A stretch of DNA of 38,933 nucleotides from sequence record SRR20825006_1429. One strand, given 5' to 3'. Both the position numbers and the translations under genes were made by a program. Numbering within the stretch: position 1 is the first letter of the stretch; each line of letters begins with the position of its first letter. Below the pieces are notes generated by a model. It saw only the letters and a list, made by a program, of their open reading frames with translations. It searched no databases and was not told the origin of the DNA. Below are positions 1,556-28,806 of this stretch, in pieces.

Positions 1556-3034
1556 TCAGGCGTCCAACCCGCCAAAATGGAAGGCTTTGGTTTCAAGGTA
1601 CTCTTCGATCCCCTCCTGCGCGCCTTCGCGGCCCAGCCCCGAGGATTTCACGCCCCCGAACGGTGCTTCGGCGTGACTGACAACTCCGGTGTTCAGCCCA
1701 ACCAGCCCCACTTCCAACGCCTCGCCAAAGCGGAATGCGCGGGCCATGTTGGTGGTAAAGAAATAGGCCGCCAGACCAAAGGGCGTGCCGTTGGCAATCT
1801 CCAGCGCCTCGGCTTCGGTCTCGAACTTGAAGATCGGCGCCACGGGACCAAAGGTTTCCTCACCCGCCAGTTGCATGTCGGTGGTCGCTCCGGTCAGCAC
1901 AACAGGATCGGCGTAATGCGCACCCAGATCACGGGTCCTTGTCGCGCGGCTGGCCCCTTTGGACAGCGCGTCGTCCACATGGGCGTTGATCTTGGCGATG
2001 GCCGCGGCGTTGATCATCGGGCCGATCATCGTCCCCTCTGCCGTGCCGGGGCCAACCGTCAACGCATCCACACGTTTTGCCAGGGCCGCAACAAAAGCAT
2101 CGTGAATGCCCGACTGCACCAGAATGCGGTTTGCGCACACGCAGGTTTGCCCGCCGTTGCGGAATTTCGACAGCATCGCGCCCTCGACCGCCGCATCCAG
2201 GTCGGCGTCGTCAAACACGATGAATGGCGCGTTGCCGCCCAGCTCCAGCGACATTTTCTTCAGCGTCGGCGCGCATTGTTCTGCCAGCAATGCCCCAATG
2301 CGGGTCGATCCGGTGAATGACAGTTTGCGCACCACCGGCGATGCCGTCAGCGTCGCACCGATCACTTCGGGGCGACCTGTCAGGATGTTCAGCACACCTG
2401 CGGGAATGCCCGCCCGTTCGGCCAGCACACCCAGCGCCAGTGCGGAATAGGGCGTAAAGTCGGACGGCTTGATCACCATGGTACAGCCAGCGGCCAGCCC
2501 CGGTGCAACCTTGCGCGTGATCATCGCGTTGGGAAAATTCCACGGCGTGATGATCGCACAGACCCCAACGGGTTCCTTCATGGCAAACAGCTTCTTGCCC
2601 GCGACCGGCGACGGGATGATGTGCCCGTTGATCCGCCGTCCCTCTTCGGCGAACCAGCGCACAAAGGATGCGCCATAAAGGATCTCGCCGCGCGCCTCTG
2701 CCAGTGGTTTGCCTTGCTCTGCGGTCAGGATTTGCGCCAGATCGTCGGCATGATCCAGCATCAGCTGATACCAGACCATCAGAATGTCAGCCCGCTCCGC
2801 GTGGGTGCGCGCGCGCCAGCCTTTCATCGCCTGTTCAGCGGCAGCAATGGCGGCGGTGGTTTCCTCGGCGGTGCTGTCGGGCATATGCCCCATCACGTCC
2901 CCTGTCGCAGGGTTGGTGACGGGCATATCGGCGCGGGCAATCCACTTGCCGTCGATCAGCGCGGCCTCGCGGAACAGATCGGGGTCAGCCAGACGGCTGC
3001 GCAGGTCGGCGGTGATGGGGTGGTGCACGGTCAT
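1556..3034 (-). CDS. gabD: NAD(P)-dependent succinate-semialdehyde dehydrogenase
   Basis: ITPWNFPNAMITRK, SFTGST, LELGGNAPF, FRNGGQTCVC, EETFGP and PFGGVKSSGLGREG. Start placed at ATG 3034 (MTVHHP), next to the upstream gene's stop. Confidence 0.92.
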   Translation of the reverse strand: MTVHHPITADLRSRLADPDLFREAALIDGKWIARADMPVTNPATGDVMGHMPDSTAEETTAAIAAAEQAMKGWRARTHAERADILMVWYQLMLDHADDLAQILTAEQGKPLAEARGEILYGASFVRWFAEEGRRINGHIIPSPVAGKKLFAMKEPVGVCAIITPWNFPNAMITRKVAPGLAAGCTMVIKPSDFTPYSALALGVLAERAGIPAGVLNILTGRPEVIGATLTASPVVRKLSFTGSTRIGALLAEQCAPTLKKMSLELGGNAPFIVFDDADLDAAVEGAMLSKFRNGGQTCVCANRILVQSGIHDAFVAALAKRVDALTVGPGTAEGTMIGPMINAAAIAKINAHVDDALSKGASRATRTRDLGAHYADPVVLTGATTDMQLAGEETFGPVAPIFKFETEAEALEIANGTPFGLAAYFFTTNMARAFRFGEALEVGLVGLNTGVVSHAEAPFGGVKSSGLGREGAQEGIEEYLETKAFHFGGLDA

Positions 3035-3036
3035 GT

Positions 3037-4083
3037 TCAAACCTCCAGCGCGGCGCAAATGGCCGCTGTTATGTCATCGGTTGTGTTCTGGCCCTGACGC
3101 GTGCCGATCCCCTTGGCGGTTGCGGCTTCGATCGCGCCCAGCACGGCGGCGGCGGCGTCTGTCTCGCCCAGATGCTCCAGCATCTGCGCACCGGACCAGA
3201 TCGCGGCAATCGGGTTGGCAATGTTCTTGCCCGCAATATCGGGGGCCGACCCGTGCACGGGTTCAAACATCGACGGGCCAGAGCGGTCGGGGCAAATGTT
3301 GGCCGAGGCGGCAAAGCCCAGACCGCCCTGAATGGCAGCCCCCAGATCGGTCAGGATGTCACCAAACAGGTTCGACGCCACGACCACGTCCAGATCTTGC
3401 GGGTTCATCACCATCTTTGCCGCCATCGCGTCGATGTGCATGTGGCTGACGGTCACCTCGGGGTATTCGGCGGCCAGTTCGCGCGTGACCTCGTCCCAGA
3501 ACACCATCGAATATTTCTGCGCGTTTGATTTCGTCACCGACGTCAGATGCTTGCGCCGCGCCTGTGCCTGTTCAAAGCCGAACCGCAGGATCCGTTCAAC
3601 GCCCACGCGGGTGAATACGGACGTCTCTACAGCAACCTCGTTGCCCTTGCCCTGATGCACGCGCCCGCCGGCACCGGAATATTCGCCTTCGGTGTTTTCG
3701 CGGATGCACAGGATGTCGAACTCGGACGCCTTCAACGGCCCCTCGACCCCCGCCAACAGACGGTGGGGGCGGATGTTGGCGTATTGGTCAAACGCCTTGC
3801 GGATCGGCAGCAGCAGCCCGTGCAGCGACACCGAGTCCGGCACCGTGTCGGGCCAGCCAACGGCGCCCAGAAAGATCGCATCAAAGCCGCGCAGGGTTTC
3901 GATCCCGTCTGCGGGCATCATCGCGCCGGTCTTGACGTAATAGTCGCAGGACCACGGAAAGGTCTGCGGCTCCAGTGCAAAGCCGAACCGTTTGGCCGCA
4001 ACGTCCAGCACGGTCATCGCCGCGTCGGTCACGTCAACGCCGATGCCGTCACCGGGGATCAATGCGAGTTTGTAAGTGGTCAT
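3037..4083 (-). CDS. Tartrate dehydrogenase / decarboxylating D-malate dehydrogenase (TtuC/DmlA-like, isocitrate/isopropylmalate DH family)
   Basis: IPGDGIG, GAVGWP, DQYANIRP, RENTEGEYS, TKSN, NLFGDILTDL and SMFEPVHGSAPDIAG; SD GAAGGAG upstream. Confidence 0.88.
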   Translation of the reverse strand: MTTYKLALIPGDGIGVDVTDAAMTVLDVAAKRFGFALEPQTFPWSCDYYVKTGAMMPADGIETLRGFDAIFLGAVGWPDTVPDSVSLHGLLLPIRKAFDQYANIRPHRLLAGVEGPLKASEFDILCIRENTEGEYSGAGGRVHQGKGNEVAVETSVFTRVGVERILRFGFEQAQARRKHLTSVTKSNAQKYSMVFWDEVTRELAAEYPEVTVSHMHIDAMAAKMVMNPQDLDVVVASNLFGDILTDLGAAIQGGLGFAASANICPDRSGPSMFEPVHGSAPDIAGKNIANPIAAIWSGAQMLEHLGETDAAAAVLGAIEAATAKGIGTRQGQNTTDDITAAICAALEV

Positions 4084-4113
4084 GTCGTTCTCCTTCAGAG
4101 TGCCCGATCCGTG

Positions 4114-5577
4114 TTACAGGTCGATCAGCACCGATTTCTTGCGCCGGTTGGCGTGATAGGCCTCGCGACCCAGATCGTGGCCCAGCCCGCTGGATTTCCA
4201 GCCGGTCGTGGGCAGTATGTGATCGCGCGAGCGGCCATATCTGTTCACCCAGACCGTCCCCGCCTCAAGCTTGCGTGTCAGCCGCATCGCACGGCTGAGG
4301 TCGCGTGTGAACAGGCCTGCGCACAAGCCATAGGTGGCGTGGTGGGCCAGAGCCATAGCCTCGTCTTCGGAAGCGAAGGTCTGGAACGTCGCCACGGGGC
4401 CGAAAATTTCCTCACGCACCGCTGGGTTGGTGTCATCCACGCCGGTGATCAACGTCGGCTGGTAATAGCTGCCTTCGTGGTCAAATCGCGCAGCGCCGCA
4501 CAGCATCTCGGCACCTTGCGCGCCCGATGCCTGCACGATGCCGTCGATCCGGCGCAGTTGCGTTTCCGAAATGATCGGGGAAAACCCCGGCTCGGCTGCG
4601 AAAGTGTCTGCCGGACGGTAGCGCGCAAATCGCTGGGTCAGCTTGGCCGCCAGTTCGTCAGCCACCTCCTGCGCCACGATCATCCGCGAGCCGGACACAC
4701 AGGCCTGGCCCGCGTTGGACATGATCCCGCGGTCCAGGCAATCCGCCGCCAGATCCAGATCGGCGTCGGCAAAGACCACCATCGGGCTTTTGCCTCCCAG
4801 CTCCAGCGTCATCGGCTTGATGCCGGTGCGCGCGATGTTTTCCATGATGGCCCCGCCCGCGCGGGTCGAACCTGTGAACGACACCTTGTCGATGCCCGCA
4901 TGTCCTGTGATGGCGGCCCCAGTGGTCAGGCCATCGCCCAGCACCACGTTGAAAATGCCCGCAGGAATGCCCGCCCGCACTGCCAGTTCGGCCATGAACA
5001 GGGTGGAATAGGGCGTCATCTCGGACGGCTTCAGCACCACGGCATTGCCTGCGGCCAGCGCCGGTCCCAGTTTCCAGCCCGCCATCGAGATCGGGAAATT
5101 CCACGGTGTAATAGCGCCGATCACGCCGTAAGGTTCATCCGCGATATAGCCAAAGTGGCTGTCCGACACCGGTGCCAGCGCGCCGCATTCCTTGTCCGCA
5201 AGCTCGGCAAAGAACCGGATTTGTTCAGCCGTCACCACGATGTCACCTGTCAGCACGTGTGCATAGGGACGTGACGAACAGATCGCTTCAAGTCCCGCCA
5301 GCGTTTCGGCTTCGGCTTCCATCAGATCGGCCCAGGCGCACAGGGCGCGCGTCCGTTCACGGGGCTGCATCCCGCCCCAGTTCGACGTGGCCAGCGCCGT
5401 GCGCGCAGATTGAACAGCGCGGTCCACCACATCCACATCTGCGCAGGGGATTTCCCCGATGATTGCACCGGTGGACGGCGACACGACGTTCAGCGCCGCA
5501 GCGCCAGCGACATATTCTCCGCCGATAAAATGCGCATTGGGAAGGGTCAGATCGCTGGGGTCATAGGCAAAGGACAT
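4114..5577 (-). CDS. Aldehyde dehydrogenase (PuuC/aminoaldehyde DH-like)
   Basis: ITPWNFP, LKPSE, SFTGST, LELGGKSP, NAGQACVSG and EEIFGPV. Start ATG 5577 (MSFAYDP) with GAGG SD. Confidence 0.9.
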   Translation of the reverse strand: MSFAYDPSDLTLPNAHFIGGEYVAGAAALNVVSPSTGAIIGEIPCADVDVVDRAVQSARTALATSNWGGMQPRERTRALCAWADLMEAEAETLAGLEAICSSRPYAHVLTGDIVVTAEQIRFFAELADKECGALAPVSDSHFGYIADEPYGVIGAITPWNFPISMAGWKLGPALAAGNAVVLKPSEMTPYSTLFMAELAVRAGIPAGIFNVVLGDGLTTGAAITGHAGIDKVSFTGSTRAGGAIMENIARTGIKPMTLELGGKSPMVVFADADLDLAADCLDRGIMSNAGQACVSGSRMIVAQEVADELAAKLTQRFARYRPADTFAAEPGFSPIISETQLRRIDGIVQASGAQGAEMLCGAARFDHEGSYYQPTLITGVDDTNPAVREEIFGPVATFQTFASEDEAMALAHHATYGLCAGLFTRDLSRAMRLTRKLEAGTVWVNRYGRSRDHILPTTGWKSSGLGHDLGREAYHANRRKKSVLIDL

Positions 5578-5692
5578 CGGGCACCTCGTGTTGCTAGAAT
5601 TACGTACATGATCGCCGGGAGTATGTACAAACGGGTGCCGAAAGTGCCGGTTGCCCGGCATCATCCGCCATCAGACTGTCGGCGGCAGCAGA

Positions 5693-7066
5693 TTATTTCG
5701 TGCGCGCATCCGGTGCCTTCTCCAGATAGGCGCTGATCGGCGCCGGACGCACGGGTGGCTGGCTGCGCAACCGTCCGATCTTGGCGACCGAAACGCCGGA
5801 TTCGGCGGCCAGAATCTCGGCTCCGGCAAGCTGGCAATAGCGCCCCTGACACCGTCCCATGCCGACACGCGACAAGGATTTCGCGCGGTTCGCTTCGGGG
5901 CCGGACAGGGACAAAGTTGTGCGCAGGTCGCCAACGCTGATGCCTTCGCAACGGCACAGGACAGTGTCTGCGGGCAGCGCACGGACCATCTGCGCAGGCC
6001 ACGGAAACGCCCGCTGCATGGCGCTGGCAAAGCGTTGCATCCGGCGCAATTCCTTCAACTCGCGGCCCGTGTCGGGGGCAGCCATCCCGAGGTCCTGCAA
6101 ACAGGCGCTGGCAGCGATTTTTCCGGCCAGTTCCGCGCCATCTGCGCCCAGTATCCGCATCCCGTCACCTGCCAGGTACACGCCCGCAGCGGCACGGCCC
6201 ATGGCATCTGTTTCGGGCAGCCATTGGTGAGACACCTGATCCCAAGCCATTGAAACACCTGCAAGATCGGTGAGGTGTGTTTCGGCTCTGAGATGCCAGC
6301 CCAGGCCCACCATATCGCAGGACGTAGCGTGGTCACGCCCCCGCGCATCCTGCCAGTGGATCGCCGTCGGCCCCGTGGTGTCCGTCACGATCCGCGTCAG
6401 CGTGACGCCTGCGTGATAGCTGCGCCCCAGACCCGCCCGCAGTGCGGCACCGCGCAAAGTGACACGGGGGCGTGCCAGCGCCATGCCAAAGGCGCCCGCC
6501 GCCTGTGTGGTCAGCGGCGCGGTGTCCAGCACCGCCACAACCTGTGCGCCCGCCTTGCGCAGTTGTGACGCGACAAGCGTCAGCAATGGTCCCGATCCGG
6601 CCAGAACCATGCGCCGTCCCAGCGCCACGCCCTGCGATTTCAGCGCGATCTGCGTCGCGCCCAGTGAATAGACGCCCGCGCTTTGCCACCCCGGAACCGG
6701 TGCCAGCCTGTCGGTGGCACCTGTCGCAAGGATCAGCTTGTCATATTCAATGGTCTCGACACCCTGCGGCCCCAGAACCTGCGCCGCCTGCCCTTCCAAT
6801 GCGACGACGGAACTGCGCGGATGATAGCTGAGTTGCGCCGCCTCAAGCATGCTGTCGAAACAGCCGTGCAGGGCGACGGCCTTGTCCGCCTCTGATCCGT
6901 AGAGCGTCCGGGCGGGGCGCTTGAACCCCTCGGGCGGGCGGCGATAGATCTGGCCACCGGCCCTCGTGCCCTCGTCCACGACAACGGGATGCAAGCCCGC
7001 TGCCACCAACCGCTGCGCCGCGCGGATACCTGCGGGGCCTGCGCCGACGATCAGCACCCGTGTCAT
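5693..7066 (-). CDS. Opine oxidase subunit A / HcnB-like NAD(P)/FAD oxidoreductase with C-terminal BFD-like [2Fe-2S] domain
   Basis: IVGAGPAG, GGQIYR, LATGATDR and YLAGDG; C-terminal CRCE...GMGRCQGRYC. Confidence 0.85.
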   Translation of the reverse strand: MTRVLIVGAGPAGIRAAQRLVAAGLHPVVVDEGTRAGGQIYRRPPEGFKRPARTLYGSEADKAVALHGCFDSMLEAAQLSYHPRSSVVALEGQAAQVLGPQGVETIEYDKLILATGATDRLAPVPGWQSAGVYSLGATQIALKSQGVALGRRMVLAGSGPLLTLVASQLRKAGAQVVAVLDTAPLTTQAAGAFGMALARPRVTLRGAALRAGLGRSYHAGVTLTRIVTDTTGPTAIHWQDARGRDHATSCDMVGLGWHLRAETHLTDLAGVSMAWDQVSHQWLPETDAMGRAAAGVYLAGDGMRILGADGAELAGKIAASACLQDLGMAAPDTGRELKELRRMQRFASAMQRAFPWPAQMVRALPADTVLCRCEGISVGDLRTTLSLSGPEANRAKSLSRVGMGRCQGRYCQLAGAEILAAESGVSVAKIGRLRSQPPVRPAPISAYLEKAPDARTK

Positions 7067-7377
7067 GGCGCGTCACCGGTTGCGGGCCATGCATCCGTCG
7101 CGGCGGACCGCAGACGCATGCCCGCTTGCAACGCGGTCGAGCACGCCCGCAGGCGCACGCCGTCCTCCTGCCAGATCCAGCAGTCCTGACAGGCCCCCAT
7201 CAGGCAAAAGCCGGACCGCTGTTCGGGGCCGAATTCGGCCTGTCGCAAGGCGCCGCGTTCCGCCAGAATCGCCGTCAGCACGGTGTCTCCTGCCAGCCCC
7301 GTCATCACCACCCCGTCAAAGGTGAACGACACCTTCGGGCGCGCCGTTTCAGCCAGCCGGACAAGCCGTCCTGTCAT
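7063..7377 (-). CDS. [2Fe-2S] subunit (HcnA / opine oxidase small subunit-like)
   Basis: GDTVLTA...FCLMGACQDC...RAC; 4-nt overlaps with both neighbours. Confidence 0.85.
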   Translation of the reverse strand: MTGRLVRLAETARPKVSFTFDGVVMTGLAGDTVLTAILAERGALRQAEFGPEQRSGFCLMGACQDCWIWQEDGVRLRACSTALQAGMRLRSAATDAWPATGDAP

Positions 7378-9359
7378 TCCGCAGCCTCTTTCAGGGGCGC
7401 CGCATGGGGCAGCGCGGGGAACCGTTCGCAGACCTCGGCGAAGGCTGCGGTGACACCTTCGGGCCCTTTGCGGCCTTTCATCCGGCGGAAAATCTCGGTC
7501 TTGGTGAAGAACCGCCAGTGGATCGGCAGGTCCGCCAGGATTTGGGTCAGCAGGTCATAGGCCGCATCGGTCCACTGTGCCTCGTAACCGTTGCGTTCGG
7601 GGCCAAAGTGGAAATGCTGGGTGTGGGGCGTCATGGACGCGCGCAGTGCTGTGGTCGCGTCTTCGTCCACCACGCCGTCGGTGATGACCACGCCATATTC
7701 ACGGCGGGCTGCATCGACCGAGACATAGCCACCAACGACATCCCGCGCGACCCGTGCAGTCGGTCGCTGCAACGGATCACCGCGCCCGCCACCACCGGCC
7801 GAGCGGATTTCAAGCACGTCGCCCGGCTCCAGAATTGCGGTGTCGACATTGCCCAAAGGCCGCGCCTGTGGCGTGCCGGGGTTGATCATCATGTCGGACA
7901 GACCTGCCGCATGGCCGCCAAGAGTACCCCACGGGCGAAAGAACGACCGGTCTCGGTTGCGTGCGGTGATGCGCGTGTCGGGGGAAAAGACACGGAACGC
8001 CATTTCGGTCGCCAGCCCGCCGCGCCAGTACCCTGCCCCGCCGCTGTCCTGGGCCAGACCGTATTTCACGAACTCCACCGGCACCTCGGTCTCGGTGATC
8101 TCGATGGGTGTGTTTTTCAGGTAAGCGGCATCCGCACCCGACCCGTTCGACCCGTCCCGATGCGGCATCCCGCCACCGCCGCCGACCACCGGATTGACGG
8201 CGGCAATCACCGTCTTCTGCGTGCGCTCGTCGCGTGTCATCACGTTGACGATGCAGTTGTTGCCAGCAGGCGCTGCGGGCATCCTGTCGGGAACAGCCTG
8301 CGAGAACGCTCCGAAGATCACCGACCGCAGCCGCGCGCAGGTCAGCGACCGCATGCCCACGGCGGCAGGTTCCACGGGGTTCAGAACGGTGCCTTCGGGT
8401 GCAATGCAGGTAAAGGGCCGCGTCATGCCCGAATTCAGCAACAGACGCGGGTTGAGCGTGTAAAGCACATAATAGACCCCCACCAACAGGATGGTATGAC
8501 GCGGGTTGCCGCCCGACGGCACGTTCAGCGACGACGCCAGTTGCGGGTCCGACCCGGTAAAGTCCAGCACGGCGCTGTCATCGGTGATCCGCAGCGTCAG
8601 CTTCAGGCGGCATGGGTTCGCCTCGTCGCTGTCTTCGTCGGCATAGTCGGCAAAGACGTATTCACCGTCGGGTACTGCCCTGAGAATGTCACGCGCCTGC
8701 GCCTCGGACTGATCCATCAGCGCGCTGACGCCTTGCAGGAACCCGGTCTTGCCAAAGCGCGCGATCATCGCCTGCACCTTGCGCTCGCCCGTGCTGAGCG
8801 CGCCGGCCAGTGCCTTGATGTCACCGATGTTCAGCGCGGGCTTGCGCACGTTGGTTTCCATGATCCGCAGGATTTGCGGGTCAAAGACGCCCTCGTTCAC
8901 CAGCTTCATCGGGGGAAAGCGGATGCCTTCCTGATGAATCTCGGTCAGCGAGCGGGACAGCGATGCAGGCACCGCACCGCCCATGTCGGTGTTGTGGATG
9001 TGCCCACCTGCAAAGGCGACGATATCGTCACCGTCAAAGATCGGACGCCACAGGTGCGTGTCCGGTGTGTGGGTGGCGACCTGACCGGAATAGGGGTCGT
9101 TGGTAAACGCCACGTCGCCCGGGCGGTAATCATCGACCATGTTGATCGCCGATCCGTGGGACAGGCCGGGATACCAGGTGGCCCCCAGATCCATGGGGAC
9201 GGCAAAGGTGTCGCCGATCTTGTCCATCAGCAGAACGGTAAAGTCCTGCGTTTCCTTGACAAAGGCGGAATGCGCGGTGCGGTGCAGGGTGTGGGCCATG
9301 TTTTCGGCAGCGGCGCGCGCGTGGTTGGCCAGCACCTGAAGGGTCATTTTATCAGACAT
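7374..9359 (-). CDS. Hydantoinase B / 5-oxoprolinase family subunit
   Basis: RTAHSAFVKETQDF, TNDPY, THTPD, HNTDMGGAVPAS, EIHQEG, DFTGSDPQ, NTPIEITE and GGGGRGDPLQR. Confidence 0.92.
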   Translation of the reverse strand: MSDKMTLQVLANHARAAAENMAHTLHRTAHSAFVKETQDFTVLLMDKIGDTFAVPMDLGATWYPGLSHGSAINMVDDYRPGDVAFTNDPYSGQVATHTPDTHLWRPIFDGDDIVAFAGGHIHNTDMGGAVPASLSRSLTEIHQEGIRFPPMKLVNEGVFDPQILRIMETNVRKPALNIGDIKALAGALSTGERKVQAMIARFGKTGFLQGVSALMDQSEAQARDILRAVPDGEYVFADYADEDSDEANPCRLKLTLRITDDSAVLDFTGSDPQLASSLNVPSGGNPRHTILLVGVYYVLYTLNPRLLLNSGMTRPFTCIAPEGTVLNPVEPAAVGMRSLTCARLRSVIFGAFSQAVPDRMPAAPAGNNCIVNVMTRDERTQKTVIAAVNPVVGGGGGMPHRDGSNGSGADAAYLKNTPIEITETEVPVEFVKYGLAQDSGGAGYWRGGLATEMAFRVFSPDTRITARNRDRSFFRPWGTLGGHAAGLSDMMINPGTPQARPLGNVDTAILEPGDVLEIRSAGGGGRGDPLQRPTARVARDVVGGYVSVDAARREYGVVITDGVVDEDATTALRASMTPHTQHFHFGPERNGYEAQWTDAAYDLLTQILADLPIHWRFFTKTEIFRRMKGRKGPEGVTAAFAEVCERFPALPHAAPLKEAAE

Positions 9360-11418: not shown

Positions 11419-11504
11419 AATAACGTCCTTTCGTCAGGTTCGATGCGTTCCCGCTCAAACCATCAGAAAGTGCGGCAGGGGTCCAAGACCTATGCAGGGG
11501 CAGA

Positions 11505-11523
11505 CCATAAGTCGAACTTATGG
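11505..11523. promoter_or_regulatory. LysR-type operator upstream of the hydantoinase operon
   Basis: Palindrome CCATAAGT-CGA-ACTTATGG containing T-N11-A; 18/19 identical to the inverted copy at 12422-12440. Confidence 0.8.
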
Positions 11524-12414: not shown

Positions 12415-12421
12415 GGCACCC

Positions 12422-12440
12422 CCATAAGTTCGACTTATGA
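12422..12440. promoter_or_regulatory. LysR-type operator in the LysR/oxidoreductase divergent region
   Basis: CCATAAGTTCGACTTATGA, 7 nt upstream of the LysR ATG; inverted copy of 11505-11523. Confidence 0.8.
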
Positions 12441-12520
12441 CCTATATCATATCCGGTCTTTGACGTGGAGCCACCCTTTGCGGTCTGATGCTGGCAACAA
12501 ATCACGCAAGGGGGCAAGCT

Positions 12521-13627: not shown

Positions 13628-13629
13628 GG

Positions 13630-14955: not shown

Positions 14956-15115
14956 GAAGTTCTCCGATTTGTTGCCAAAACTTACGCCACCCTGTTCAAC
15001 CACTTGTGCCGGATGTCGCCCTGCAAACAGCATTTCATATCGAATGCAGTTGACTATAAAGGGTGGCTGACGTTCACAAGGGGATACATGGCGTGCAGAC
15101 TCCGAAGGATAGCAG

Positions 15116-15610
15116 ATGACAACCCGTTATAAGCTGGACCGGATCGACCTGAAGATTCTGGCCGAGCTTCAGCGCAATGGACGTATCACGAATGTCGAGC
15201 TGGCCGATCTGGTCAGCCTGTCGCCATCGCCTTGCCTGATGCGCGTCAAAAAGCTGCAAAAGGCCGGTTACATTGTCGGATACGCCGCCCAGATCGACGT
15301 GGCCAAGCTGGGCGATACGCTGACGGTGTTCACCGAATTCACCCTGACCAACCATCGCCAGATCGACTTTGCCCGGTTTCAGGAAGCGTTGGAAAAAGTC
15401 CCGTCCTGTGTGGAATGTCACCTGGTATCAGGTGGTTACGACTATCTGGCGAAATTTGTCACGTCGTCCATCGCAGACTATCAGAACGTCATCGAAGCCC
15501 TGATCGACCGCAGCGTCGGGATCGACAAATATTTCAGCTTTGTCGTGATGAAGACGCCCTTTGTCAAAACGCAACTGCCCCTGACGGATCTGTTCGAAGA
15601 CCGGATCTGA
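15116..15610 (+). CDS. Lrp/AsnC family transcriptional regulator
   Basis: LDRIDLKILAELQRNGRITNVELADLVSLSPSPCLMRVKKL; ECHLVSGGYDY. Confidence 0.95.
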   Translation: MTTRYKLDRIDLKILAELQRNGRITNVELADLVSLSPSPCLMRVKKLQKAGYIVGYAAQIDVAKLGDTLTVFTEFTLTNHRQIDFARFQEALEKVPSCVECHLVSGGYDYLAKFVTSSIADYQNVIEALIDRSVGIDKYFSFVVMKTPFVKTQLPLTDLFEDRI

Positions 15611-15615
15611 CCGCA

Positions 15616-17295: not shown

Positions 17296-18155
17296 TCGCT
17301 CCTGTCGCGGATACGGGTCGGCAGGTTGTCGATGAACATGTTCACCGAGATGGTCAGCGACGCGATGGCGATCGACGGAAATACGACCGCCGGCGCGCCA
17401 AGGCTGAGCCCTTCGATATTCTCGCGCACCAGCGCGCCCCAGTCGGCATTCGGCGGCTGCACGCCAAGGCCCAGAAACGACAGGCCCGACAACACCAGCA
17501 CGATAAAGACGAAACGCAGGCCAAGATCGGCCAGAACCGGCCCCAGGATGTTCGGAAAGATCTCGCGCAGGATAAGATAGGGCGTCGCCTCGCCGCGCGC
17601 CCGCGCCACGGTCACGAAATCCATGGTATTGATGTTCACCGCCAGCGCCCGCGCAAAACGGTAGGACCCAGGCATGTAGATCGCCGTCAGGGTCATGATC
17701 AGGATCGGGATGGACGAGCCGACCGCCGCCACGACCACCAGTCCGAACAGCAGCGAAGGAATACCGTTGAACGCATCCAGCAGCCGCGACAGGATCATGT
17801 CGAACCAGCCCCCGGCCACGGCTGCAATCATGCCCAGCAGAACCCCGATGGTGCAGGCCAGCGTCACGGCGGCCAGGGCGATGCCCACGGTATAGCGCGC
17901 GCCCATGATGATGCGTGAAAAGATGTCACGCCCCAGATAATCGGTGCCCATCCAGAATTCGGACGTGACCGGACCGAAATAGTCCCAATCCACAATCTCG
18001 CCCGGAGGATGCGGTGCCAGGAACGGCCCGGCAATGGCGACGATGGCCCAAAAGACGATCACCGCCAGCCCGACACGTCCAACCCAGTTGAAAACGAACT
18101 TGGGACCTTCGGGAGCCTTATCTTCGGACAAGGAGTGAGACACGGTATCGGTCAT
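17292..18155 (-). CDS. ABC transporter permease (DppC-like)
   Basis: MGTDYLGRDIFSR, FVTVARARGE and SFLGLGVQPPNADWG. Start placed at ATG 18155. Confidence 0.93.
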   Translation of the reverse strand: MTDTVSHSLSEDKAPEGPKFVFNWVGRVGLAVIVFWAIVAIAGPFLAPHPPGEIVDWDYFGPVTSEFWMGTDYLGRDIFSRIIMGARYTVGIALAAVTLACTIGVLLGMIAAVAGGWFDMILSRLLDAFNGIPSLLFGLVVVAAVGSSIPILIMTLTAIYMPGSYRFARALAVNINTMDFVTVARARGEATPYLILREIFPNILGPVLADLGLRFVFIVLVLSGLSFLGLGVQPPNADWGALVRENIEGLSLGAPAVVFPSIAIASLTISVNMFIDNLPTRIRDRSE

Positions 18156-18157
18156 GA

Positions 18158-19114
18158 TCAACGAAGCCTCGGGTTTGACAGGATTGCAATGAGATCCGCC
18201 AGAGTGATCAGCGACAGGTAGCTGACGCAAAAGATCATGGCACAGGACTGGATCAGCGGCAGGTCGCGGGTAGAGACCGCATCGACCATCAGCTTGGCAA
18301 CACCCGGATAGTTGAAAATCGTCTCGACGATGATGACCCCGCCCACCAGATAGCTCAGCGACAGCGCGACCGCGTTGGCGATGGGTCCCAATGCATTGGG
18401 CAGCGCATGGCGCAACACCATGCGCGACAGGGACGCCCCCTTGAGCAGCGCCATCTCCACGTAAGGCGTGTTGATGGTTTCGATCACCGCGGCGCGGCTC
18501 ATGCGGATCATCTGCGCCGACACGACCAGCGACAAGGAGATCACCGGCATGGCATAGGCGCGCAGCATGGCCGACCAGCTGTCAAGTTCGACGCCGTAGC
18601 TGAGCGCAGGCAGCCACCCGAGCCAGACGGCAAAGACCAGCACGGCCAATGTGGCGACCATGAATTCAGGCACCGACACCACAGAGATTGTCAGCAAGGA
18701 CACCAGACGATCAAAGATCGAGCCACGCCACATGGCCGCACAGATCCCCAGCGTCAGCGCAACCGGCACCGACACCAGCGTCACGACACCGGCCAAACGC
18801 AGCGAGTTCAGAAGACGCCCGCCGATCAGTTCAGCAACTTCCATATTGTTGACATAGGACGTGCCCATATCGCCTTGGGCCAACCCCAAAAGCCAATGCA
18901 CGAAACGCGACAGCGCCGGTTCGTTCAGCCCCATCGCCTCGCGCAGACCCGCGACGGCTTCGGGCGTCGCGGCCTGGCCCAGCAGGATCTCTGCCACGTC
19001 ACCGGGCAGCATCGCCGTCGCGAAAAAGACCGCGAAGGACACGATGATCAATGTCACGAATGCGATGCCCAGTCTTTGCGCAACGAGAATGTATGGCAGA
19101 AGTGATCGGGTCAA
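18158..19114 (-). CDS. ABC transporter permease (DppB-like)
   Basis: LPGDVAEILLG, YVEMALLKG, RHALPNA, VETIFNYPG and RDLPLIQ; TTG start with GAGG SD. Confidence 0.93.
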   Translation of the reverse strand: MTRSLLPYILVAQRLGIAFVTLIIVSFAVFFATAMLPGDVAEILLGQAATPEAVAGLREAMGLNEPALSRFVHWLLGLAQGDMGTSYVNNMEVAELIGGRLLNSLRLAGVVTLVSVPVALTLGICAAMWRGSIFDRLVSLLTISVVSVPEFMVATLAVLVFAVWLGWLPALSYGVELDSWSAMLRAYAMPVISLSLVVSAQMIRMSRAAVIETINTPYVEMALLKGASLSRMVLRHALPNALGPIANAVALSLSYLVGGVIIVETIFNYPGVAKLMVDAVSTRDLPLIQSCAMIFCVSYLSLITLADLIAILSNPRLR

Positions 19115-19191
19115 AAGGCACCTCGTATCAGTTAATGGACGTCTGAAGAGCCGCGCGATACCGCGCGACCCTTATGTTCAGCGTAAATCGA

Positions 19192-20802
19192 TTACGCGTC
19201 CAGCCAGACATATTCGGCAAAGGCATAGCCCATCATGCCGCCCAGCGGGTTGGCCTCGAGGCCGCCCAGCTTGGATGTCACTGCGTCGACGTTGGAGATA
19301 TAGGCGGGAATGATCGTGCCTGCTTCGTTGGCCACCATTTCCTGCATTTCCCAATACATCGCCGTCCGCTTTTCCTCGTCCAGTGCGCCGCGCGCTTCGA
19401 TCATCATCTTATCGAATTTCTCGGACTTGTAATGGCTTTCGTTCCAGGGCGCATCGGACGCGTACAGCAGCGAGAACAGGATGTCCGGTGTCGGACGCGG
19501 GTTGATGTTGCCGAAGTGAACCGGCGACTTCAGCCAGTAGTTCGACCAGTAGCCATCGGACGGCACACGGTCGACCGTCAGGTTCATGCCGATTTCCGCG
19601 CCTGCTTGCTGGACCACTGTCGCCATGTCGACCGAGGACCCGGCCGCATCGGAGGCAACCATCGGAATCTCGACACCCAGCAGACCCGCTTTTTCAAAGT
19701 GGAACTTGGCCTTTTCAGGGTCAAAGTCACGCGGTGCCAGGTTGGGGTTGTGGTAACGGTTGGCCGACGACACGGGTTGGTCGTTGCCGATTTCCGCCAG
19801 ACCACGCAGAACCGATTTCTGGATCGCTTCACGGTTGATCAGCGATTTCATACCTTCGACGAAATCCATCTGCTCGCCCGGCGCTACGTCGAGCCGGATG
19901 TTCAGGTTGGTATAGTTGCCAGCGGTCGAGATGCTGGTGCGCACCGCGTCATTCCCTTCAACCATCCGCAAGGAACGGGGGTTCACCGCCGCCGCGAGCT
20001 GGATGTCGCCCGAGAGCAAAGCATTGACGCGCGCGTTGTTGTCGGGGATCGCGAAGAACTCAAAGCTGTCCAGATAGGCGCCTTGGGGCTTGAAGTAGTT
20101 GTCGTTGCGCACGCCGATAGACCGCACGCCGGGTTCAAACACTTCGCTTTTGAAAGCGCCCGTACCATTGGCGGTGGTGAAATCGGTGGTGCCGTCAGCG
20201 ACAATCATGAAGTGGTGCAGCGACAGGATGGTGGGAAGGTCGGCGTTCGGCTCGGCCAGAACGATCTTGACGGTCAGGTCGTCGACCTTGCTGATCTCGG
20301 CCATCTGCTTGGCCAGCGAGTTGGCTTTGGAGCCCACGGCCGGGTCAAGGTGACGGTTCATCGAGTACACGACATCATCCGCGCTCAGCGTTTTACCGTC
20401 GTGGAACTGTACGCCGGACTTCAGCTTGATGTTCCAAGTTTGCGCATCATCGGATTCAATGCTGTCGGCCAGCTCCATCTGCACATTGCCGTCACCGCCC
20501 AGGAATGTCAGGCGGTTATAGTAGGCGCAGCAGCGGACATAGTCGGTGGACAGTGTCGCCTTGGCCGGGTCCAGCGTGTCGGCGGTGGACGACGACCAAC
20601 CTGCGGCTTTCAGCGTGCCGCCCGTTGTCGGCGTTGCGGCAACGGCGGCTGTCGCATGGGACAAAAGCGTCCCACCTGCGGCCACGGCCACACCCGATGC
20701 CATAAGCATTTTCAGCAACTCGCGACGCGATGCGCCGCGGCGGATCATGTGTTCAACCGCTGCATCATCGCGGCTGGTCCAGTTTGTGGGTGTTTTGGTC
20801 AT
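19192..20802 (-). CDS. ABC transporter substrate-binding protein, family 5 (peptide/opine/nickel), Tat-exported
   Basis: Twin-arginine SRRELLK followed by a hydrophobic stretch; LDP, GVQFHDGKTLSADDVVYS and GTGAFK family 5 motifs. Confidence 0.93.
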   Translation of the reverse strand: MTKTPTNWTSRDDAAVEHMIRRGASRRELLKMLMASGVAVAAGGTLLSHATAAVAATPTTGGTLKAAGWSSSTADTLDPAKATLSTDYVRCCAYYNRLTFLGGDGNVQMELADSIESDDAQTWNIKLKSGVQFHDGKTLSADDVVYSMNRHLDPAVGSKANSLAKQMAEISKVDDLTVKIVLAEPNADLPTILSLHHFMIVADGTTDFTTANGTGAFKSEVFEPGVRSIGVRNDNYFKPQGAYLDSFEFFAIPDNNARVNALLSGDIQLAAAVNPRSLRMVEGNDAVRTSISTAGNYTNLNIRLDVAPGEQMDFVEGMKSLINREAIQKSVLRGLAEIGNDQPVSSANRYHNPNLAPRDFDPEKAKFHFEKAGLLGVEIPMVASDAAGSSVDMATVVQQAGAEIGMNLTVDRVPSDGYWSNYWLKSPVHFGNINPRPTPDILFSLLYASDAPWNESHYKSEKFDKMMIEARGALDEEKRTAMYWEMQEMVANEAGTIIPAYISNVDAVTSKLGGLEANPLGGMMGYAFAEYVWLDA

Positions 20803-20869
20803 TTCTATTTTCCCTGGTGTTGTTAAAGTTTAACCCTAGTGATCTTGTCGTCGCTTCAGGCCGCTGAGA

Positions 20870-21601
20870 TCACGCGCTAAAGGCATCGTCGGCCGCTTGG
20901 GCCAATTCGATCAACGCGTGAAAATGGTAATCCGGCACGGTGAACTCCTTGGGCGCGATGGTGCCGCCGTATCCGCCCTGGGCATGGCGCCGCTGAATCC
21001 AGGCGTTGGTCATGCCCAGCGCGCGCGAGATTCCGATGTCGTGGTACTGGCTTTGCGCCGTGTGCAGGATGTCGTCCTTGCAGCCGCCATCACGCTCGAC
21101 ATGGGCGAATACCTTTTGGAAATAGGCGCGGTCCGGCTTTTCCGTGCCGGTGTCGTCGGTGGTGAAACCGGCCCAGAACGGATTGCCCAATTTGGCGGAA
21201 TATTTGTCAAACGCCCAGCGCCGCGCGTTGGTCATCGCGATCAGCTTGTAGCGCGCCTTGAGCCGCGCCATCGCCTCGACGCTGTCGGCAAAGGGTTCGG
21301 CCTCGCCCACGGCGTCGATCATGTACTGGCGATATTCCGGGGTGTCGGGCAGGCCGAACACCTCGGCAATGCGCCCATAGCAGCGGCCCAGGTCGTCGGG
21401 GAACAGGTCCGCGTCAGGCTCGTAGCGCGCATCGCGGTATACGGCGAGCGCAGCCTCGCCGTTAAGATCAATGCCTTCTTTCGCTGCGATGTCTGCAAGG
21501 CCGCCTTTGATCGCACCTTCAAAGTCGATCAGTGTGCCGACCACATCAAAGCTGACGTAACCGAATTCTGTCAGGGGTTTCACATCGGTTGTCGTCGTCA
21601 T
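20870..21601 (-). CDS. HAD superfamily type II hydrolase, similar to L-azetidine-2-carboxylate hydrolase
   Basis: FDVVGTLID (motif I), AMTN, EKPD, ILHTAQSQYHD and WIQRRHAQGGYGGT. Start ATG 21601 with GAGG SD. The specific similarity is from recollection of that enzyme's sequence. Confidence 0.85.
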   Translation of the reverse strand: MTTTTDVKPLTEFGYVSFDVVGTLIDFEGAIKGGLADIAAKEGIDLNGEAALAVYRDARYEPDADLFPDDLGRCYGRIAEVFGLPDTPEYRQYMIDAVGEAEPFADSVEAMARLKARYKLIAMTNARRWAFDKYSAKLGNPFWAGFTTDDTGTEKPDRAYFQKVFAHVERDGGCKDDILHTAQSQYHDIGISRALGMTNAWIQRRHAQGGYGGTIAPKEFTVPDYHFHALIELAQAADDAFSA

Positions 21602-21796
21602 CTCTGATATCCTCAGTGCATAAGAGCGGATTTTCGCAATGTTCGAGAGCGGTGTTTCGGAACCGGCTTTCACGTTTTCTACCTTCAGGTTCCCCTGAAA
21701 CAGGCTCTGCAAAACGCCGAATGTGGGCAGGAGCACGGCAGATTCTACTGTATTCGGGAAAACAGCGGCATTTCCCTGCAATCTGCCATTTTCCCC

Positions 21797-22708
21797 TTAA
21801 TACCCGCGATCCTGATCGACCTGACCGGGCAATTCGGCGTTGTCGCGGCTGGCGCGGACCACCGCCAGAGCATGACGTGCGCCCTCGACAGCGTCCGTAT
21901 TTGCGGCAATGTGCGGTGTGATGAAAACGCGGGGATCTCGCCAAGCCCAGTGGTTTTCGGGCAATGGTTCAGGGGCGGTCACGTCCAGCATCGCAGAGGT
22001 CAGAACGCCATCGTCCAGCGCCTGCTTGAGCGCATCCATATCCAGCTGCGCCCCACGCCCCGCATGCACCAGACGCGCGCCATGGGGCAGCTTGGCAAAC
22101 AGCGTTGCGTTCAGGATGCCCTGCGTTTCATCGGTCAGGGGCAGCAGACAGATCAGAATGTCCGACTGTGCCAGAAAGTCCTCCAACCCGTCAGAAGCAA
22201 AAACCTTGATCCCCTCGACGGGTCTGCCGGATCGTGACCAGCCCGCCACGTCGAACTCCATGTCCGCCAGTGTCCGCGCCGCCAAAGCGCCGATACGGCC
22301 CATTCCCATGATACCGACGCGCGTGCCGCGCGCACGTGGGACCGCGTGGCCTTTCCATTGTCCGGCGCTGGCCTGTTGCACATAGGTCGGCATGTCGCGG
22401 TGCAACATCAGCGTGGCCATAACCACCCAATCGCGCACCATTTCGTCAATCCCCGGTGCAAGCGTGCGCACCAAGGTGACGCCCTCGGGCATCTTGGGCA
22501 TGTGGTCCACACCTGCCCCCGAGCCGATGACGACTTTCAGATTGGGATAGCGCCCAAGATCCTTTGGCGGCAGCCAGCACATCAGATGTGTGATTGCTGC
22601 CGGATCGGTCACCGCGTCCTCGCCCACGATAAACGGCTCGCCCGCTTCTTCAAACATCGGTCCCCAAACGGCAGCCCGCTCGGGGGTCGAGAGAAACAGG
22701 AACGCCAT
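21797..22708 (-). CDS. ghrA: Glyoxylate/hydroxypyruvate reductase A-like D-2-hydroxyacid dehydrogenase
   Basis: GAGVDH, GIMGMGRIG, LLPLTDET, AGRG, LDV..PEPLP and ITPHIA. Start ATG 22708 overlaps the aminotransferase stop. Confidence 0.85.
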   Translation of the reverse strand: MAFLFLSTPERAAVWGPMFEEAGEPFIVGEDAVTDPAAITHLMCWLPPKDLGRYPNLKVVIGSGAGVDHMPKMPEGVTLVRTLAPGIDEMVRDWVVMATLMLHRDMPTYVQQASAGQWKGHAVPRARGTRVGIMGMGRIGALAARTLADMEFDVAGWSRSGRPVEGIKVFASDGLEDFLAQSDILICLLPLTDETQGILNATLFAKLPHGARLVHAGRGAQLDMDALKQALDDGVLTSAMLDVTAPEPLPENHWAWRDPRVFITPHIAANTDAVEGARHALAVVRASRDNAELPGQVDQDRGY

Positions 22709-24081
22709 CAGCGCAACACCGCGCGAATTTCGGGATCTTCCAGCGTCAGGTCCAGCACGTTGCGGGTGCGTTCGACAATCGCGTCGATCTCGCCGTCGGT
22801 GCAGCACAGCGGCGGCGCGTAGCCAAAGATGCCTTGCGCAAACGACCGCACGATCAGGCCCTGATCCCATGCGCGGTCGAATAGCCGCGTGGCGGGCTGC
22901 ACGGCGGCAGGCAACGGGGTTTTCTTGTCCTTGTCCGTCACCAGTTCGACCGCCGCCAGCATGCCGCGGCCGCGCACATCACCCACCAACGGGTGATCGC
23001 GCAGGCTTTCCAGCCCTGCCATCAGGCGCGCACCGGCCTTGATGCCGTTGTCGAACAGGCCGCCCTCGTACAGCGCCAGAACCTCGAGCGCGACGGCTGC
23101 CGAAACCGGATGCGCGGAGTAGGTAAAGCCGTGGCCCACGGCCTTGGCCCCTGCCCCGTCGGCGATGGTGTCATAGACATGATCCGACATGAACACGGCC
23201 CCCATCGGCACATAGCCCGAGGTCAGACCCTTGGCACAGGTCATCAGGTCGGGCACGATGTCTTCTTCGGCGCTGGCAAAGATCGGGCCGGTGCGGCCAA
23301 AGCCGGTGATGACTTCATCGGCGATGAACAGGATGCCCAGTTCCTTGCAGACATCGCTCATTGCCTTGATCCAGCCCTTTGGCGGGACCAGAACGCCACC
23401 CGAGCCCTGGATCGGCTCGACATAGAATGCGGCGACCTTGTCTTCGCCAATCGTGGCCACCTTGGCACGCAATTCGGCAACCGACGCGTCGATGACCGTT
23501 TGCGCATCGTCCCCCAGCGGGTTGCGATACAGGTAGTGCGACGAAATCTTATGCTGCCACGCGTAAGGCACGCCAAAGCCGTCGTGGAACCCCGGCAGCG
23601 CGGTCAGGCCAGCCCCCATCGTGGTGGACCCGTGATAGCCCTGTTCGACCGAGATGAACTGATCGCGCTGGGGCTGGCCCTTGGAATGCCAGTAATAGCG
23701 GACAAAACGGATCGTGCTGTCGACGGCGTCCGACCCGCCAAGGGTGAAATAGATGTGGTTCAGATCGCCCGGGCTACGCTCGGCCAATTCAGCGGCCAGC
23801 CGGATCGGTGCCTCGGAGCCAAGATCAAAATAGCCGGTGGCGTAGGGCAGGCGACGCATCTGCTCGGCAGCGGCCTCGACCACGCTTTCATGGCCATAGC
23901 CTGCGTTCACGCACCACAGGCCTGCAAAGCCGTCGATCAACTGGCGGCCCTCGGCATCGGTGACGGTCGCGCCCTTGGCAGATTTCAGAACGCGCACGCC
24001 GCGCGCTTCGTGGCCGCGGAAGGACGATACCGGGTGAACAAGGTGCTGGCGGTCCAGCTCGACAAGGGAATTGGTCAGCAT
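22708..24081 (-). CDS. Class III (omega-amino acid) PLP aminotransferase
   Basis: DGFAGLWCVNAGYG, GGSDAVD, GYHG, EPIQGSGG, ADEVITGFGRTG, PDLMTCAKGLTSGY and HGFTYSAHP. Confidence 0.93.
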   Translation of the reverse strand: MLTNSLVELDRQHLVHPVSSFRGHEARGVRVLKSAKGATVTDAEGRQLIDGFAGLWCVNAGYGHESVVEAAAEQMRRLPYATGYFDLGSEAPIRLAAELAERSPGDLNHIYFTLGGSDAVDSTIRFVRYYWHSKGQPQRDQFISVEQGYHGSTTMGAGLTALPGFHDGFGVPYAWQHKISSHYLYRNPLGDDAQTVIDASVAELRAKVATIGEDKVAAFYVEPIQGSGGVLVPPKGWIKAMSDVCKELGILFIADEVITGFGRTGPIFASAEEDIVPDLMTCAKGLTSGYVPMGAVFMSDHVYDTIADGAGAKAVGHGFTYSAHPVSAAVALEVLALYEGGLFDNGIKAGARLMAGLESLRDHPLVGDVRGRGMLAAVELVTDKDKKTPLPAAVQPATRLFDRAWDQGLIVRSFAQGIFGYAPPLCCTDGEIDAIVERTRNVLDLTLEDPEIRAVLR

Positions 24082-24098
24082 GTCAGTCTCCGAAAGGA

Positions 24099-26205: not shown

Positions 26206-26214
26206 TGATCAGGC

Positions 26215-27470: not shown

Positions 27471-27486
27471 GGGACCGGAACATACC

Positions 27487-28776: not shown

Positions 28777-28806
28777 AAACCGACGGGGGCGGCACGCGCC
28801 CCGGTC

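Follow-up and report, generated by a model that had tools for sequence, protein, structure and literature searches.

A conserved accessory catabolic island linking a HAD hydrolase of the azetidine-2-carboxylate hydrolase branch to a transaminase and predicted D-malate enzymes

Sequence record SRR20825006_1429 is a 38,933-nucleotide stretch of high-GC DNA (hereafter the window) from a Sulfitobacter/Pseudosulfitobacter genome. From about position 1556 to 29900 it carries a real, widespread and uncharacterised catabolic island, in which genes for a haloacid dehalogenase-family (HAD) hydrolase and an omega-transaminase are linked to genes for a GabD-type aldehyde dehydrogenase and a TtuC-type dehydrogenase. 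The gene families, their operon-like spacing, and their linkage and co-occurrence were observed directly. The reading we favour, tentatively and at a little under even confidence, is that this conserved accessory island converts an imported amino compound into a four-carbon hydroxy-amino acid, then into D-malate and finally into pyruvate.

Genes were called from a listing of open reading frames (ORFs), a Pfam scan of 45 window ORFs and NCBIfam models with curated cutoffs. All the genes that the initial annotation had placed in one cluster were recovered by Pfam and NCBIfam. The HAD-IA hydrolase (20870–21601, minus strand; 243 residues, ATG at 21601 behind GAGGA) is preceded by a GhrA-like, D-isomer-specific 2-hydroxyacid dehydrogenase (21797–22708, minus strand; Pfam 2-Hacid_dh_C, 4e-46), whose ATG overlaps the stop codon of a class III omega-aminotransferase (22708–24081, minus strand) in the sequence ATGA. 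The GabD-type succinate/malate-semialdehyde dehydrogenase (1556–3034, minus strand) is listed as an ORF starting at 3058, with a likely ATG at 3034 behind GGAGG. It is adjoined by the TtuC-type tartrate/D-malate dehydrogenase (decarboxylating; 3037–4083, minus strand) and by a second aldehyde dehydrogenase (4114–5664, minus strand; start uncertain), which is betaine-/aminobutyraldehyde-dehydrogenase-like (Pfam Aldedh, 3e-140) and falls under every NCBIfam cutoff. The label 'type II' that the HAD hydrolase had been given did not hold up, as it scores 80.2 bits against a TIGR01428 cutoff of 125.4; a second HAD (26805–27470, plus strand) passes this model with 161.4 bits.

The linkage between these genes extends across genomes. 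In a family sample of 251 genomes, one per genus, an orthologue of the first HAD was found in seven. TtuC identity in this sample is bimodal, with nine genomes at 73–99% and all others at or below 58%. The 73–99% type is present in 7/7 HAD-positive genomes versus 2/244 others, which bears out the expectation, raised with the initial annotation, that these families co-occur. In five of the seven, HAD and TtuC lie 7–17 kb apart on one contig. Beyond this sample, HAD orthologues of 70–99% identity were found in 47 loci from marine Rhodobacterales, Thalassospira, Nisaea, Hoeflea, Rhodobium and Pelagibius, and the window proteins were searched by tblastn against these loci with 10-kb flanks. Matches were obtained for the binding protein of the transporter (46/47), the aminotransferase (45/47), the AsnC regulator (44/47), the third FAD (flavin adenine dinucleotide) oxidase and the second GNAT acyltransferase (43/47 each), the 2-hydroxyacid dehydrogenase (42/47), the second HAD (38/47), a D-amino-acid-dehydrogenase-like oxidase (37/47), a cupin (36/47) and an M20 deacylase (35/47). 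TtuC lies within the 10-kb flank in 11/47. Ten of ten further genomes, in which the flank was too short, hold exactly one TtuC of 73–87% identity, 16–18 kb from HAD as in the window, a shared contig being deduced from the coordinates. TtuC was found inside the island in 21/21 loci checked, in several gene orders.

At least six gene arrangements keep the island genes together. A compact form in Celeribacter and four others reads GNAT, FAD oxidase, cupin, aminotransferase, 2-hydroxyacid dehydrogenase, HAD, ABC (ATP-binding cassette) transporter genes, AsnC, TtuC and GabD. In another form, the aldehyde dehydrogenase and TtuC genes directly follow the D-amino-acid-dehydrogenase-like gene, and in the window form, hydantoinase and oxidase genes are inserted. 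Paracoccus denitrificans PD1222 plasmid 1 (L076) has one co-directional array and Sinorhizobium meliloti 1021 pSymA (1037158–1071826, L077) its own arrangement; both hold the full island, with a TtuC 76% identical to that of the window. On pSymA the island spans about 1.041–1.063 Mb, and on PD1222 plasmid 1 it corresponds to PDEN_RS24625–24750. One genome (G032) carries TtuC, GabD, M20 and aminotransferase genes on one contig and the HAD and ABC genes on another. The compact island of L025 is flanked by unrelated uronate genes. The HAD is encoded in 264 plasmid or chromid records (Rhizobium 119, Sinorhizobium 68, Ralstonia 31; also Paracoccus, Azospirillum and others). In the stretches examined, every variant that retains TtuC also has GabD, the third FAD oxidase and the second GNAT, and nearly all have AsnC. 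Four S. meliloti genes, SMa1850, SMa1855, SMa1864 and SMa1869, are presumably genes of this island, judging only by their matching product names. These genes, for an oxidoreductase, an aminotransferase, an ABC ATPase and an amino acid oxidase, respectively, are placed in one PhaR-dependent regulon class in the available portion of PMC12542648.

A wider, phylum-level sample contained a HAD of the same enzyme branch in 25 of 401 genomes. In a distant proteobacterium with a 3.2-Mb genome (L069; G349:C1:1562000-1581999, positions 8993–13109), aminotransferase, HAD and AsnC genes form an operon with TtuC divergent from it, and the HAD retains the DWE and HTAES..HDH motifs of the solved azetidine-2-carboxylate (AZC) hydrolases without CY or YKP. 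A plain route from AZC to D-malate may have its cleanest candidate in this locus. At L068, a HAD with motifs of the DWE and HTAES..HDH type adjoins a GabD-like gene, and at L070, L073 and L075 the HAD is without such aminotransferase, TtuC or GabD partners.

When the first HAD was searched against all PDB sequences, the only close relatives were AZC hydrolases, 3SMV/8YWO/9V14 (E 5e-35) and 8HP5–8HP7 (E 3e-33), the 8HP5 enzyme presumably being from Novosphingobium. The next match was cis-epoxysuccinate hydrolase (E 8e-8), and classical dehalogenases followed at about 1e-3. The HAD-IA core is kept in alignment with the solved AZC hydrolases and comprises the nucleophile Asp (FDxxGTL) and the S/T-N, K-P and S..HD motifs. 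The window HAD family forms a single cluster at 50% identity, its next full-length relatives being 38–41% identical, and its invariant motifs across 15 sequences are FDVVGTLIDFE, MTNA[RQ]RWA, EKP and HTAQSQ[YH]HDI(G). Those common to both solved AZC hydrolases are FDCYGTLIDWE, LSN[IV]D, [SA]YKP and HTAESL[YF]HDH. At four positions where the solved enzymes have aromatic residues, the window HAD clade has smaller ones. In a quick IQ-TREE analysis of 93 rows, which did not include the validated AZC hydrolases, their class being read from motifs, the 'V..AQSQ.HDI' rows form one 26-row clade (SH-aLRT 99) nested among 'CY'-class rows; none of the rows in this clade carries the CY...ESL/QSL..HDH motifs. 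By its sequence, the window HAD is thus placed in the AZC-hydrolase branch, apparently in a separate sister clade of it.

The AZC hydrolases, including that of Pseudomonas sp. A2C (the 3SMV/8YWO/9V14 enzyme), the 8HP5–8HP7 enzyme and AzhA of Aspergillus nidulans, share with the window HAD the HAD-IA fold, the catalytic motif skeleton and a length of about 240 residues. Use of AZC by A. nidulans is reported to need AzhA and a 4-aminobutyrate (GABA) transaminase, with a GNAT helping in detoxification (Biratsi 2021, PMC8016842, available portion); in the window, a transaminase and GNATs are likewise encoded, here beside the HAD. The Pseudomonas enzyme is specific for L-AZC according to the accessible part of a 2026 preprint. 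In Pseudomonas, AZC is hydrolysed in the periplasm and the product is then taken up by a GABA-type permease, as described in the same portion of PMC8016842. The window HAD differs in being encoded beside an ABC importer and in having no signal peptide discernible by eye, so that it is probably cytoplasmic. AZC synthases are spread over several bacterial phyla and are also known from aquatic sources (Klaubert 2025, PMC11794875, available portion).

Of the enzymes of the proposed downstream half, the aminotransferase scores 832 bits against a PRK05965 cutoff of 729. Its near solved chains include a polyamine:pyruvate transaminase (9J4Z, E 5e-104) and a putrescine transaminase (6GWI), besides several chains, among them 6HX9, 3FCR and 3HMU, which are named just 'aminotransferase', and the 5KQ/5KR set, named 4-aminobutyrate transaminase; pyruvate is the predicted amino acceptor. 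The GabD-type enzyme passes the succinate-semialdehyde dehydrogenase subfamily model TIGR01780 (656.9 versus 646.35), falls under the Escherichia coli GabD equivalog cutoff (648.9 versus 828), and matches PDB 8S33, the malic semialdehyde dehydrogenase of Acinetobacter baumannii, at E 8e-167. TtuC scores 568 bits on TIGR02089 (cutoff 470.4), has tartrate dehydrogenase/decarboxylase 3FLK as its top PDB match (E 9e-111), and is a predicted D-malate oxidative decarboxylase.

A proven job of the proposed kind exists for such a pair, because the A. baumannii GabD-like and DmlA-like enzymes convert malic semialdehyde via D-malate to pyruvate both in vitro and in vivo, and 8S33 is the D-malate-forming dehydrogenase of its carnitine operon (PMC11353897, available portion). 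The downstream half of the route therefore has a proven precedent, and the D-malate end of the island is well founded. The L-carnitine pathway resembles the window in that the genes for a GabD-like aldehyde dehydrogenase and for a DmlA/TtuC-type enzyme are neighbours, whose products lead, in the window by prediction, through D-malate to pyruvate. The two differ in how the aldehyde would arise, by transamination or FAD-dependent oxidation of an amine in the window, and in its structure, 2-hydroxy-4-oxobutanoate being proposed here rather than 3-hydroxy-4-oxobutanoate. No carnitine monooxygenase (Rieske CntA/CntB) was among the Pfam matches of the 45 window ORFs.

Substrate, stereochemistry and step order are deduced from these observations, and so are the roles given to the remaining conserved genes. 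The substrate would enter the cell through an ABC importer of family 5 (Opp/Nik type). The nucleophile Asp of the HAD would then attack C2 of an L-2-substituted carboxylate and invert this centre, most simply yielding D-2-hydroxy-4-aminobutyrate. Because ring opening of L-AZC is the sole precedent for this enzyme branch, the substrate at this step would, by analogy, be L-AZC itself or an N-substituted or related strained imino acid. L-2-haloacid dehalogenases work in this manner: an Asp attacks C2, an ester intermediate is formed and C2 is inverted. The omega-transaminase would turn the 4-amino group into an aldehyde, a step that the FAD oxidase at 27487–28776 may take over where the transaminase is missing. 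The GabD-type enzyme would oxidise the resulting malate semialdehyde (2-hydroxy-4-oxobutanoate) to D-malate, and TtuC would decarboxylate D-malate to pyruvate, which could again serve as amino acceptor. If the transaminase does use pyruvate, the product of TtuC would regenerate the acceptor and AZC would end as alanine and CO2. Both window dehydrogenases for 2-hydroxy acids are of D-specific types, which fits with C2-inverting HADs. The best-supported part is the trunk, from amine to aldehyde by transaminase or FAD oxidase, to D-malate by the GabD-type enzyme and to pyruvate by TtuC.

Around this trunk, the island is organised in two minus-strand runs. The first descends from 26679 to 15616 in the order cupin, M20 deacylase, GNAT, aminotransferase, D-2-hydroxyacid dehydrogenase, HAD-IA, solute-binding protein, two permeases and fused ATPase. 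The second descends from 11418 to 1556 in the order hydantoinase A, hydantoinase B, small subunit, alpha-like flavoprotein, aldehyde dehydrogenase, TtuC and GabD. The AsnC gene (plus strand), two FAD oxidoreductase genes and a LysR gene lie between the runs, and the second HAD and third FAD oxidoreductase genes (both plus strand) and the second GNAT gene lie to the right of the first. Contigs from four RNA-library runs span the whole 20 kb compared, among them single contigs of 8–14 kb at about 92% identity; transcription and DNA carry-over are inseparable in these data and the genes cannot be ranked by them.

The importer consists of a family-5 solute-binding protein (19192–20802; Pfam SBP_bac_5, 5e-64), two permeases (17292–18230 and 18158–19114; Pfam BPD_transp_1) and a fused double ATPase of the Nik/Opp/Dpp type (15616–17295; Pfam ABC_tran twice and oligo_HPY), all on the minus strand. 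These parts score best with nickel, Opp and staphylopine models, mostly under the cutoffs. The permeases match nickel/Opp permease models best, under cutoffs, and the top NCBIfam models for the ATPase, which alone passes the NikE and NikD cutoffs, are the dipeptide, NikE/NikD and CntD/F models. The binding protein has distant PDB relatives only (DppA, AgaA and NikA; E no better than 2e-22), the AgaA structure 6HLX matching at E 3e-21. An Lrp/AsnC regulator gene (15116–15610, plus strand; Pfam HTH_24 and AsnC_trans_reg) adjoins the ATPase gene, and its product probably controls the island. The LysR regulator gene (11524–12414, minus strand; Pfam HTH_1 and LysR_substrate) is present in 25/47 loci.

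The hydantoinase and opine-oxidase-like genes are joined to those for the aldehyde dehydrogenase, TtuC and GabD by overlaps or short gaps. The hydantoinase A/oxoprolinase-type subunit (9352–11418, minus strand; Pfam Hydantoinase_A, Hydant_A_N and Hydant_A_C) is caprolactamase-like, under cutoff, and is followed by the hydantoinase B/oxoprolinase-type subunit (7374–9359, minus strand; Pfam Hydantoinase_B, 4e-136). Next come a small subunit (7063–7377, minus strand) with a weak match to the SoxA N-terminus, 51–59% identical to counterparts beside OoxA in L064, L066 and L078, and an opine-oxidase/sarcosine-oxidase alpha-like flavoprotein (5693–7066, minus strand; Pfam Pyr_redox_2 and SO_alpha_A3). 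A sarcosine-oxidase-beta-like FAD oxidoreductase (12488–13627, plus strand; Pfam DAO, 1e-71) is the probable partner of the 5693–7377 pair. The hydantoinase pair and this three-part flavoenzyme (5693–11418 and 12488–13627) appear to be co-transcribed with the aldehyde dehydrogenase, TtuC and GabD genes. The hydantoinase pair, which might open a lactam, also occurs in the P. denitrificans plasmid 1 island, hydantoinase A lies at the edge of L023 and L028, and opine-oxidase-like subunits recur in L064, L066 and L078.

A comparable set of parts is encoded by the aga (agropinic/mannopinic acid) genes of octopine-type Ti plasmids, where an ABC importer of family 5 occurs together with a lactamase pair resembling hydantoinases and a flavoprotein resembling opine oxidase. 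The similarity is weak, AgaA being a distant match of the binding protein, and to our knowledge HAD, transaminase and TtuC are all missing from the aga system.

A D-amino-acid-dehydrogenase-like FAD oxidoreductase (13630–15033, minus strand; Pfam DAO, 4e-75) is encoded next to the AsnC gene. The third FAD oxidoreductase (27487–28776, plus strand; Pfam DAO, 2e-71) is pipecolate-oxidase/amine-oxidase-like and is paired with the second HAD, its ATG at 27487 lying 16 nt past the second HAD stop (26805–28776). The FAD oxidase that was searched in PDB has distant solved relatives only, and the Atlas names for it are generic. In four other Proteobacteria (L056–L059), the genes for a HAD of the first HAD's clade and an FAD oxidase are part of ABC operons of the polyamine type (Pot) that also have a LysR gene. 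Two GNAT acyltransferases with an Acetyltransf_18 domain in Pfam (24099–24950, and 28807–29901 with its start uncertain; both minus strand) had weak generic GNATs as PDB matches; Mpr1 was not among these matches (E up to 1), which speaks neither for nor against an Mpr1-like AZC acetyltransferase. The M20 deacylase (25087–26205, minus strand) is ArgE-like (PRK07522, 424 versus 412; TIGR01892, 393 versus 298), and a Cupin_3 protein (26215–26679, minus strand; 2e-21, start uncertain) precedes it. The GNAT, aminotransferase, aldehyde dehydrogenase and ArgE-like set might run an acetyl-protected diaminobutyrate branch, and the D-2-hydroxyacid dehydrogenase might form the same D-hydroxy acid from 2-oxo-4-aminobutyrate, for instance after oxidation of 2,4-diaminobutyrate.

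The specific route from AZC to D-malate advanced in the initial annotation stands in part. The branch of the HAD, the linked transaminase, GabD and TtuC genes and the A. baumannii precedent speak for it, whereas several findings weigh against it. The HAD is about 37% identical to 3SMV (86 of about 231 aligned positions, by hand count), while AzhA and the Pseudomonas enzyme are 44.5% identical to each other (PMC8016842, available portion). The motif set shared by the solved enzymes is not kept, CY being replaced by VV, DWE by DFE, LSN[IV]D by MTNA[RQ], YKP by EKP and AESL[YF]HDH by AQSQ[YH]HDI. We know of no characterised member of its separate clade. Because of this identity, these motifs and this clade, AZC as the substrate is a guess by analogy, albeit a plausible one. 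The literature consulted reports neither C2 inversion nor the configuration of the product for an AZC hydrolase. Larger ligands are the usual cargo of importers of the Opp/Nik type, to which this one belongs, and the trunk leaves at least ten conserved genes without a role. Outside the route stand the Opp/Nik transporter, three to four FAD oxidoreductases, two GNATs, the ArgE-like deacylase, the cupin, the second HAD and the hydantoinase pair. Variants also separate the parts. L050 and L051 lack the first HAD and keep TtuC, GabD, the second HAD and an FAD oxidase. G002 keeps TtuC, GabD, the second HAD, FAD oxidases, the 2-hydroxyacid dehydrogenase, GNATs and M20, and the first HAD, aminotransferase and ABC genes were not found in the 20 kb examined. 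G245 is without the first HAD and the 2-hydroxyacid dehydrogenase, and in Rhizobium johnstonii the HAD, aminotransferase and ABC genes are present and TtuC was not found within 17 kb. Literature searches did not link AZC or hydroxy-aminobutyrate with D-malate or tartrate dehydrogenase, returning only carnitine papers for hydroxy-aminobutyrate/malate semialdehyde, and found no paper joining tartrate dehydrogenase, haloacid dehalogenase, hydantoinase and aminotransferase in rhizobia. Among the 15 of 40 records listed for azetidine with the D-malate or tartrate dehydrogenases, the only one to mention both was an unrelated metabolomics paper, and the 25 of 27,571 records listed for AZC in a marine setting included no paper on AZC.

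Other explanations of the gene set were weighed against these data. It is hardly credible that independent operons have come to lie within 25 kb by chance, and the comparative data contradict it. The HAD/transaminase and TtuC/GabD operons are indeed about 17 kb apart, with two regulators and divergent genes between them, and a promoter and terminator scan of 15000–31000 was uninformative, giving fewer sites than in shuffled sequence; however, the co-occurrence (7/7 versus 2/244) and the placement of TtuC in 21/21 loci argue otherwise, as does the direct adjacency of the genes in the compact, P. denitrificans and S. meliloti forms. It is very unlikely that the HADs are true dehalogenases or epoxide hydrolases, which would turn L-2-chlorosuccinate into D-malate or cis-epoxysuccinate into tartrate to feed TtuC, with the amine enzymes forming a separate pathway. 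The second HAD is a member of the L-2-haloacid dehalogenase type II family by TIGR01428, cis-epoxysuccinate hydrolase is the first HAD's next solved relative, and TtuC is a tartrate/D-malate enzyme. Yet the first HAD falls under the TIGR01428 cutoff, the genes for transaminase, GabD and TtuC move together (L054, L069), the transaminase is translationally coupled to the 2-hydroxyacid dehydrogenase, which immediately precedes the HAD, and Lrp/AsnC is an amino-acid-sensing type of regulator. Nothing in the window points to a halogenated substrate, and no halide- or organic-acid-type transporter was found in it. An island for the breakdown of ordinary omega-amines or of diamino acids, for example 2,4-diaminobutyrate, fragments of polyamines or GABA analogues, in which D-2-hydroxy-4-aminobutyrate would come from a 2-oxo acid via the D-2-hydroxyacid dehydrogenase and the HADs would have side roles, is unlikely. 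It would accommodate the polyamine:pyruvate and putrescine transaminases near the window enzyme, the ArgE-like deacylase and GNATs, which suggest acetyl-protected diamino acids, the variants without the first HAD that keep FAD oxidases, 2-hydroxyacid dehydrogenase, TtuC and GabD, and the related HAD and FAD-oxidase pairs of the Pot-type operons (L056–L059). It sits poorly with the presence of one or both HADs in every variant seen and with the first HAD being among the best-conserved island proteins (70–99% identity in the 47 loci), and no polyamine-type binding protein was found in the window.

A larger AZC-bearing or aminocarboxypropyl compound is a serious alternative substrate. In its full form this explanation, which we consider quite unlikely, takes a conjugate with azetidine or aminocarboxypropyl units, for example nicotianamine or a mugineic-acid-type or opine-type metallophore, to be imported by the Nik/Cnt-like ABC system. 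Its secondary and tertiary amines would be cleaved by the FAD oxidoreductases, releasing AZC, 2,4-diaminobutyrate or hydroxy-aminobutyrate units for the D-malate trunk and for a branch with acetyl protection (GNAT, transaminase, aldehyde dehydrogenase, ArgE-like deacylase). The nickel, Opp and staphylopine models that fit the transporter best agree with this, as do the three to four FAD amine oxidoreductases, including the opine-oxidase-like three-part enzyme. The smaller residues at four aromatic positions in the HAD clade could mean a wider pocket. The hosts are largely associated with plants or algae (Rhizobium, Sinorhizobium and Ralstonia plasmids; mangrove isolates), and nicotianamine bears the AZC ring (PMC11794875, available portion). 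Every transporter match is weak, however, and the literature search found no paper on bacterial nicotianamine catabolism. Bolder and less likely again is the idea that the island serves to eat nicotianamine- and mugineic-acid-type chelators of plants and algae, in which a new HAD clade would open an N-substituted azetidine ring and the pieces would pass to D-malate and pyruvate and, through the acetyl-protected diaminobutyrate branch, to aspartate.

The nearest related loci are those of Sulfitobacter sp. 20_GPM-1509m (HAD 99% identical) and Pseudosulfitobacter pseudonitzschiae (94%). On its left (1–1453), the island of the window is flanked by genes for RNase HII and for an N6/N4 DNA methylase, the latter truncated at the window end, and the window closes on the right with a gene for aspartate-semialdehyde dehydrogenase (38067–38933). 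Because of these flanks, the island is chromosomal here, whereas many other hosts carry it on a plasmid. Between 29868 and 32923, a GcvA-like LysR gene is divergent from a gene for a 654-residue oxidoreductase with FMN (flavin mononucleotide; old yellow enzyme) and FAD/NAD(P) parts, which we take to resemble N-methylproline-demethylase-type enzymes. A 59% identical copy of it stands at the island edge in P. denitrificans (L076) and in L067. At 35571–37990, a DUF3095 gene (minus strand), in which the Pfam match is confined to the last 378 residues of a 652-codon ORF, meets the ORF of a major facilitator superfamily (MFS) transporter (plus strand). The two long ORFs overlap, and at least one start has therefore been called too early.

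Since the island is widespread, in marine Rhodobacterales and in the 264 plasmid or chromid records, its substrate is probably a common plant or algal nitrogen compound. The predictions are directly testable because two easily manipulated strains, S. meliloti 1021 (on pSymA) and P. denitrificans PD1222 (on plasmid 1), carry the island. If the proposed route is true, it would complete AZC-type catabolism, so far known only from its first enzyme and from a 'GABA-like' follow-up that is loosely defined, and the occurrence of a D-malate enzyme among amine genes would be explained by a C2-inverting hydrolase that makes the D form.

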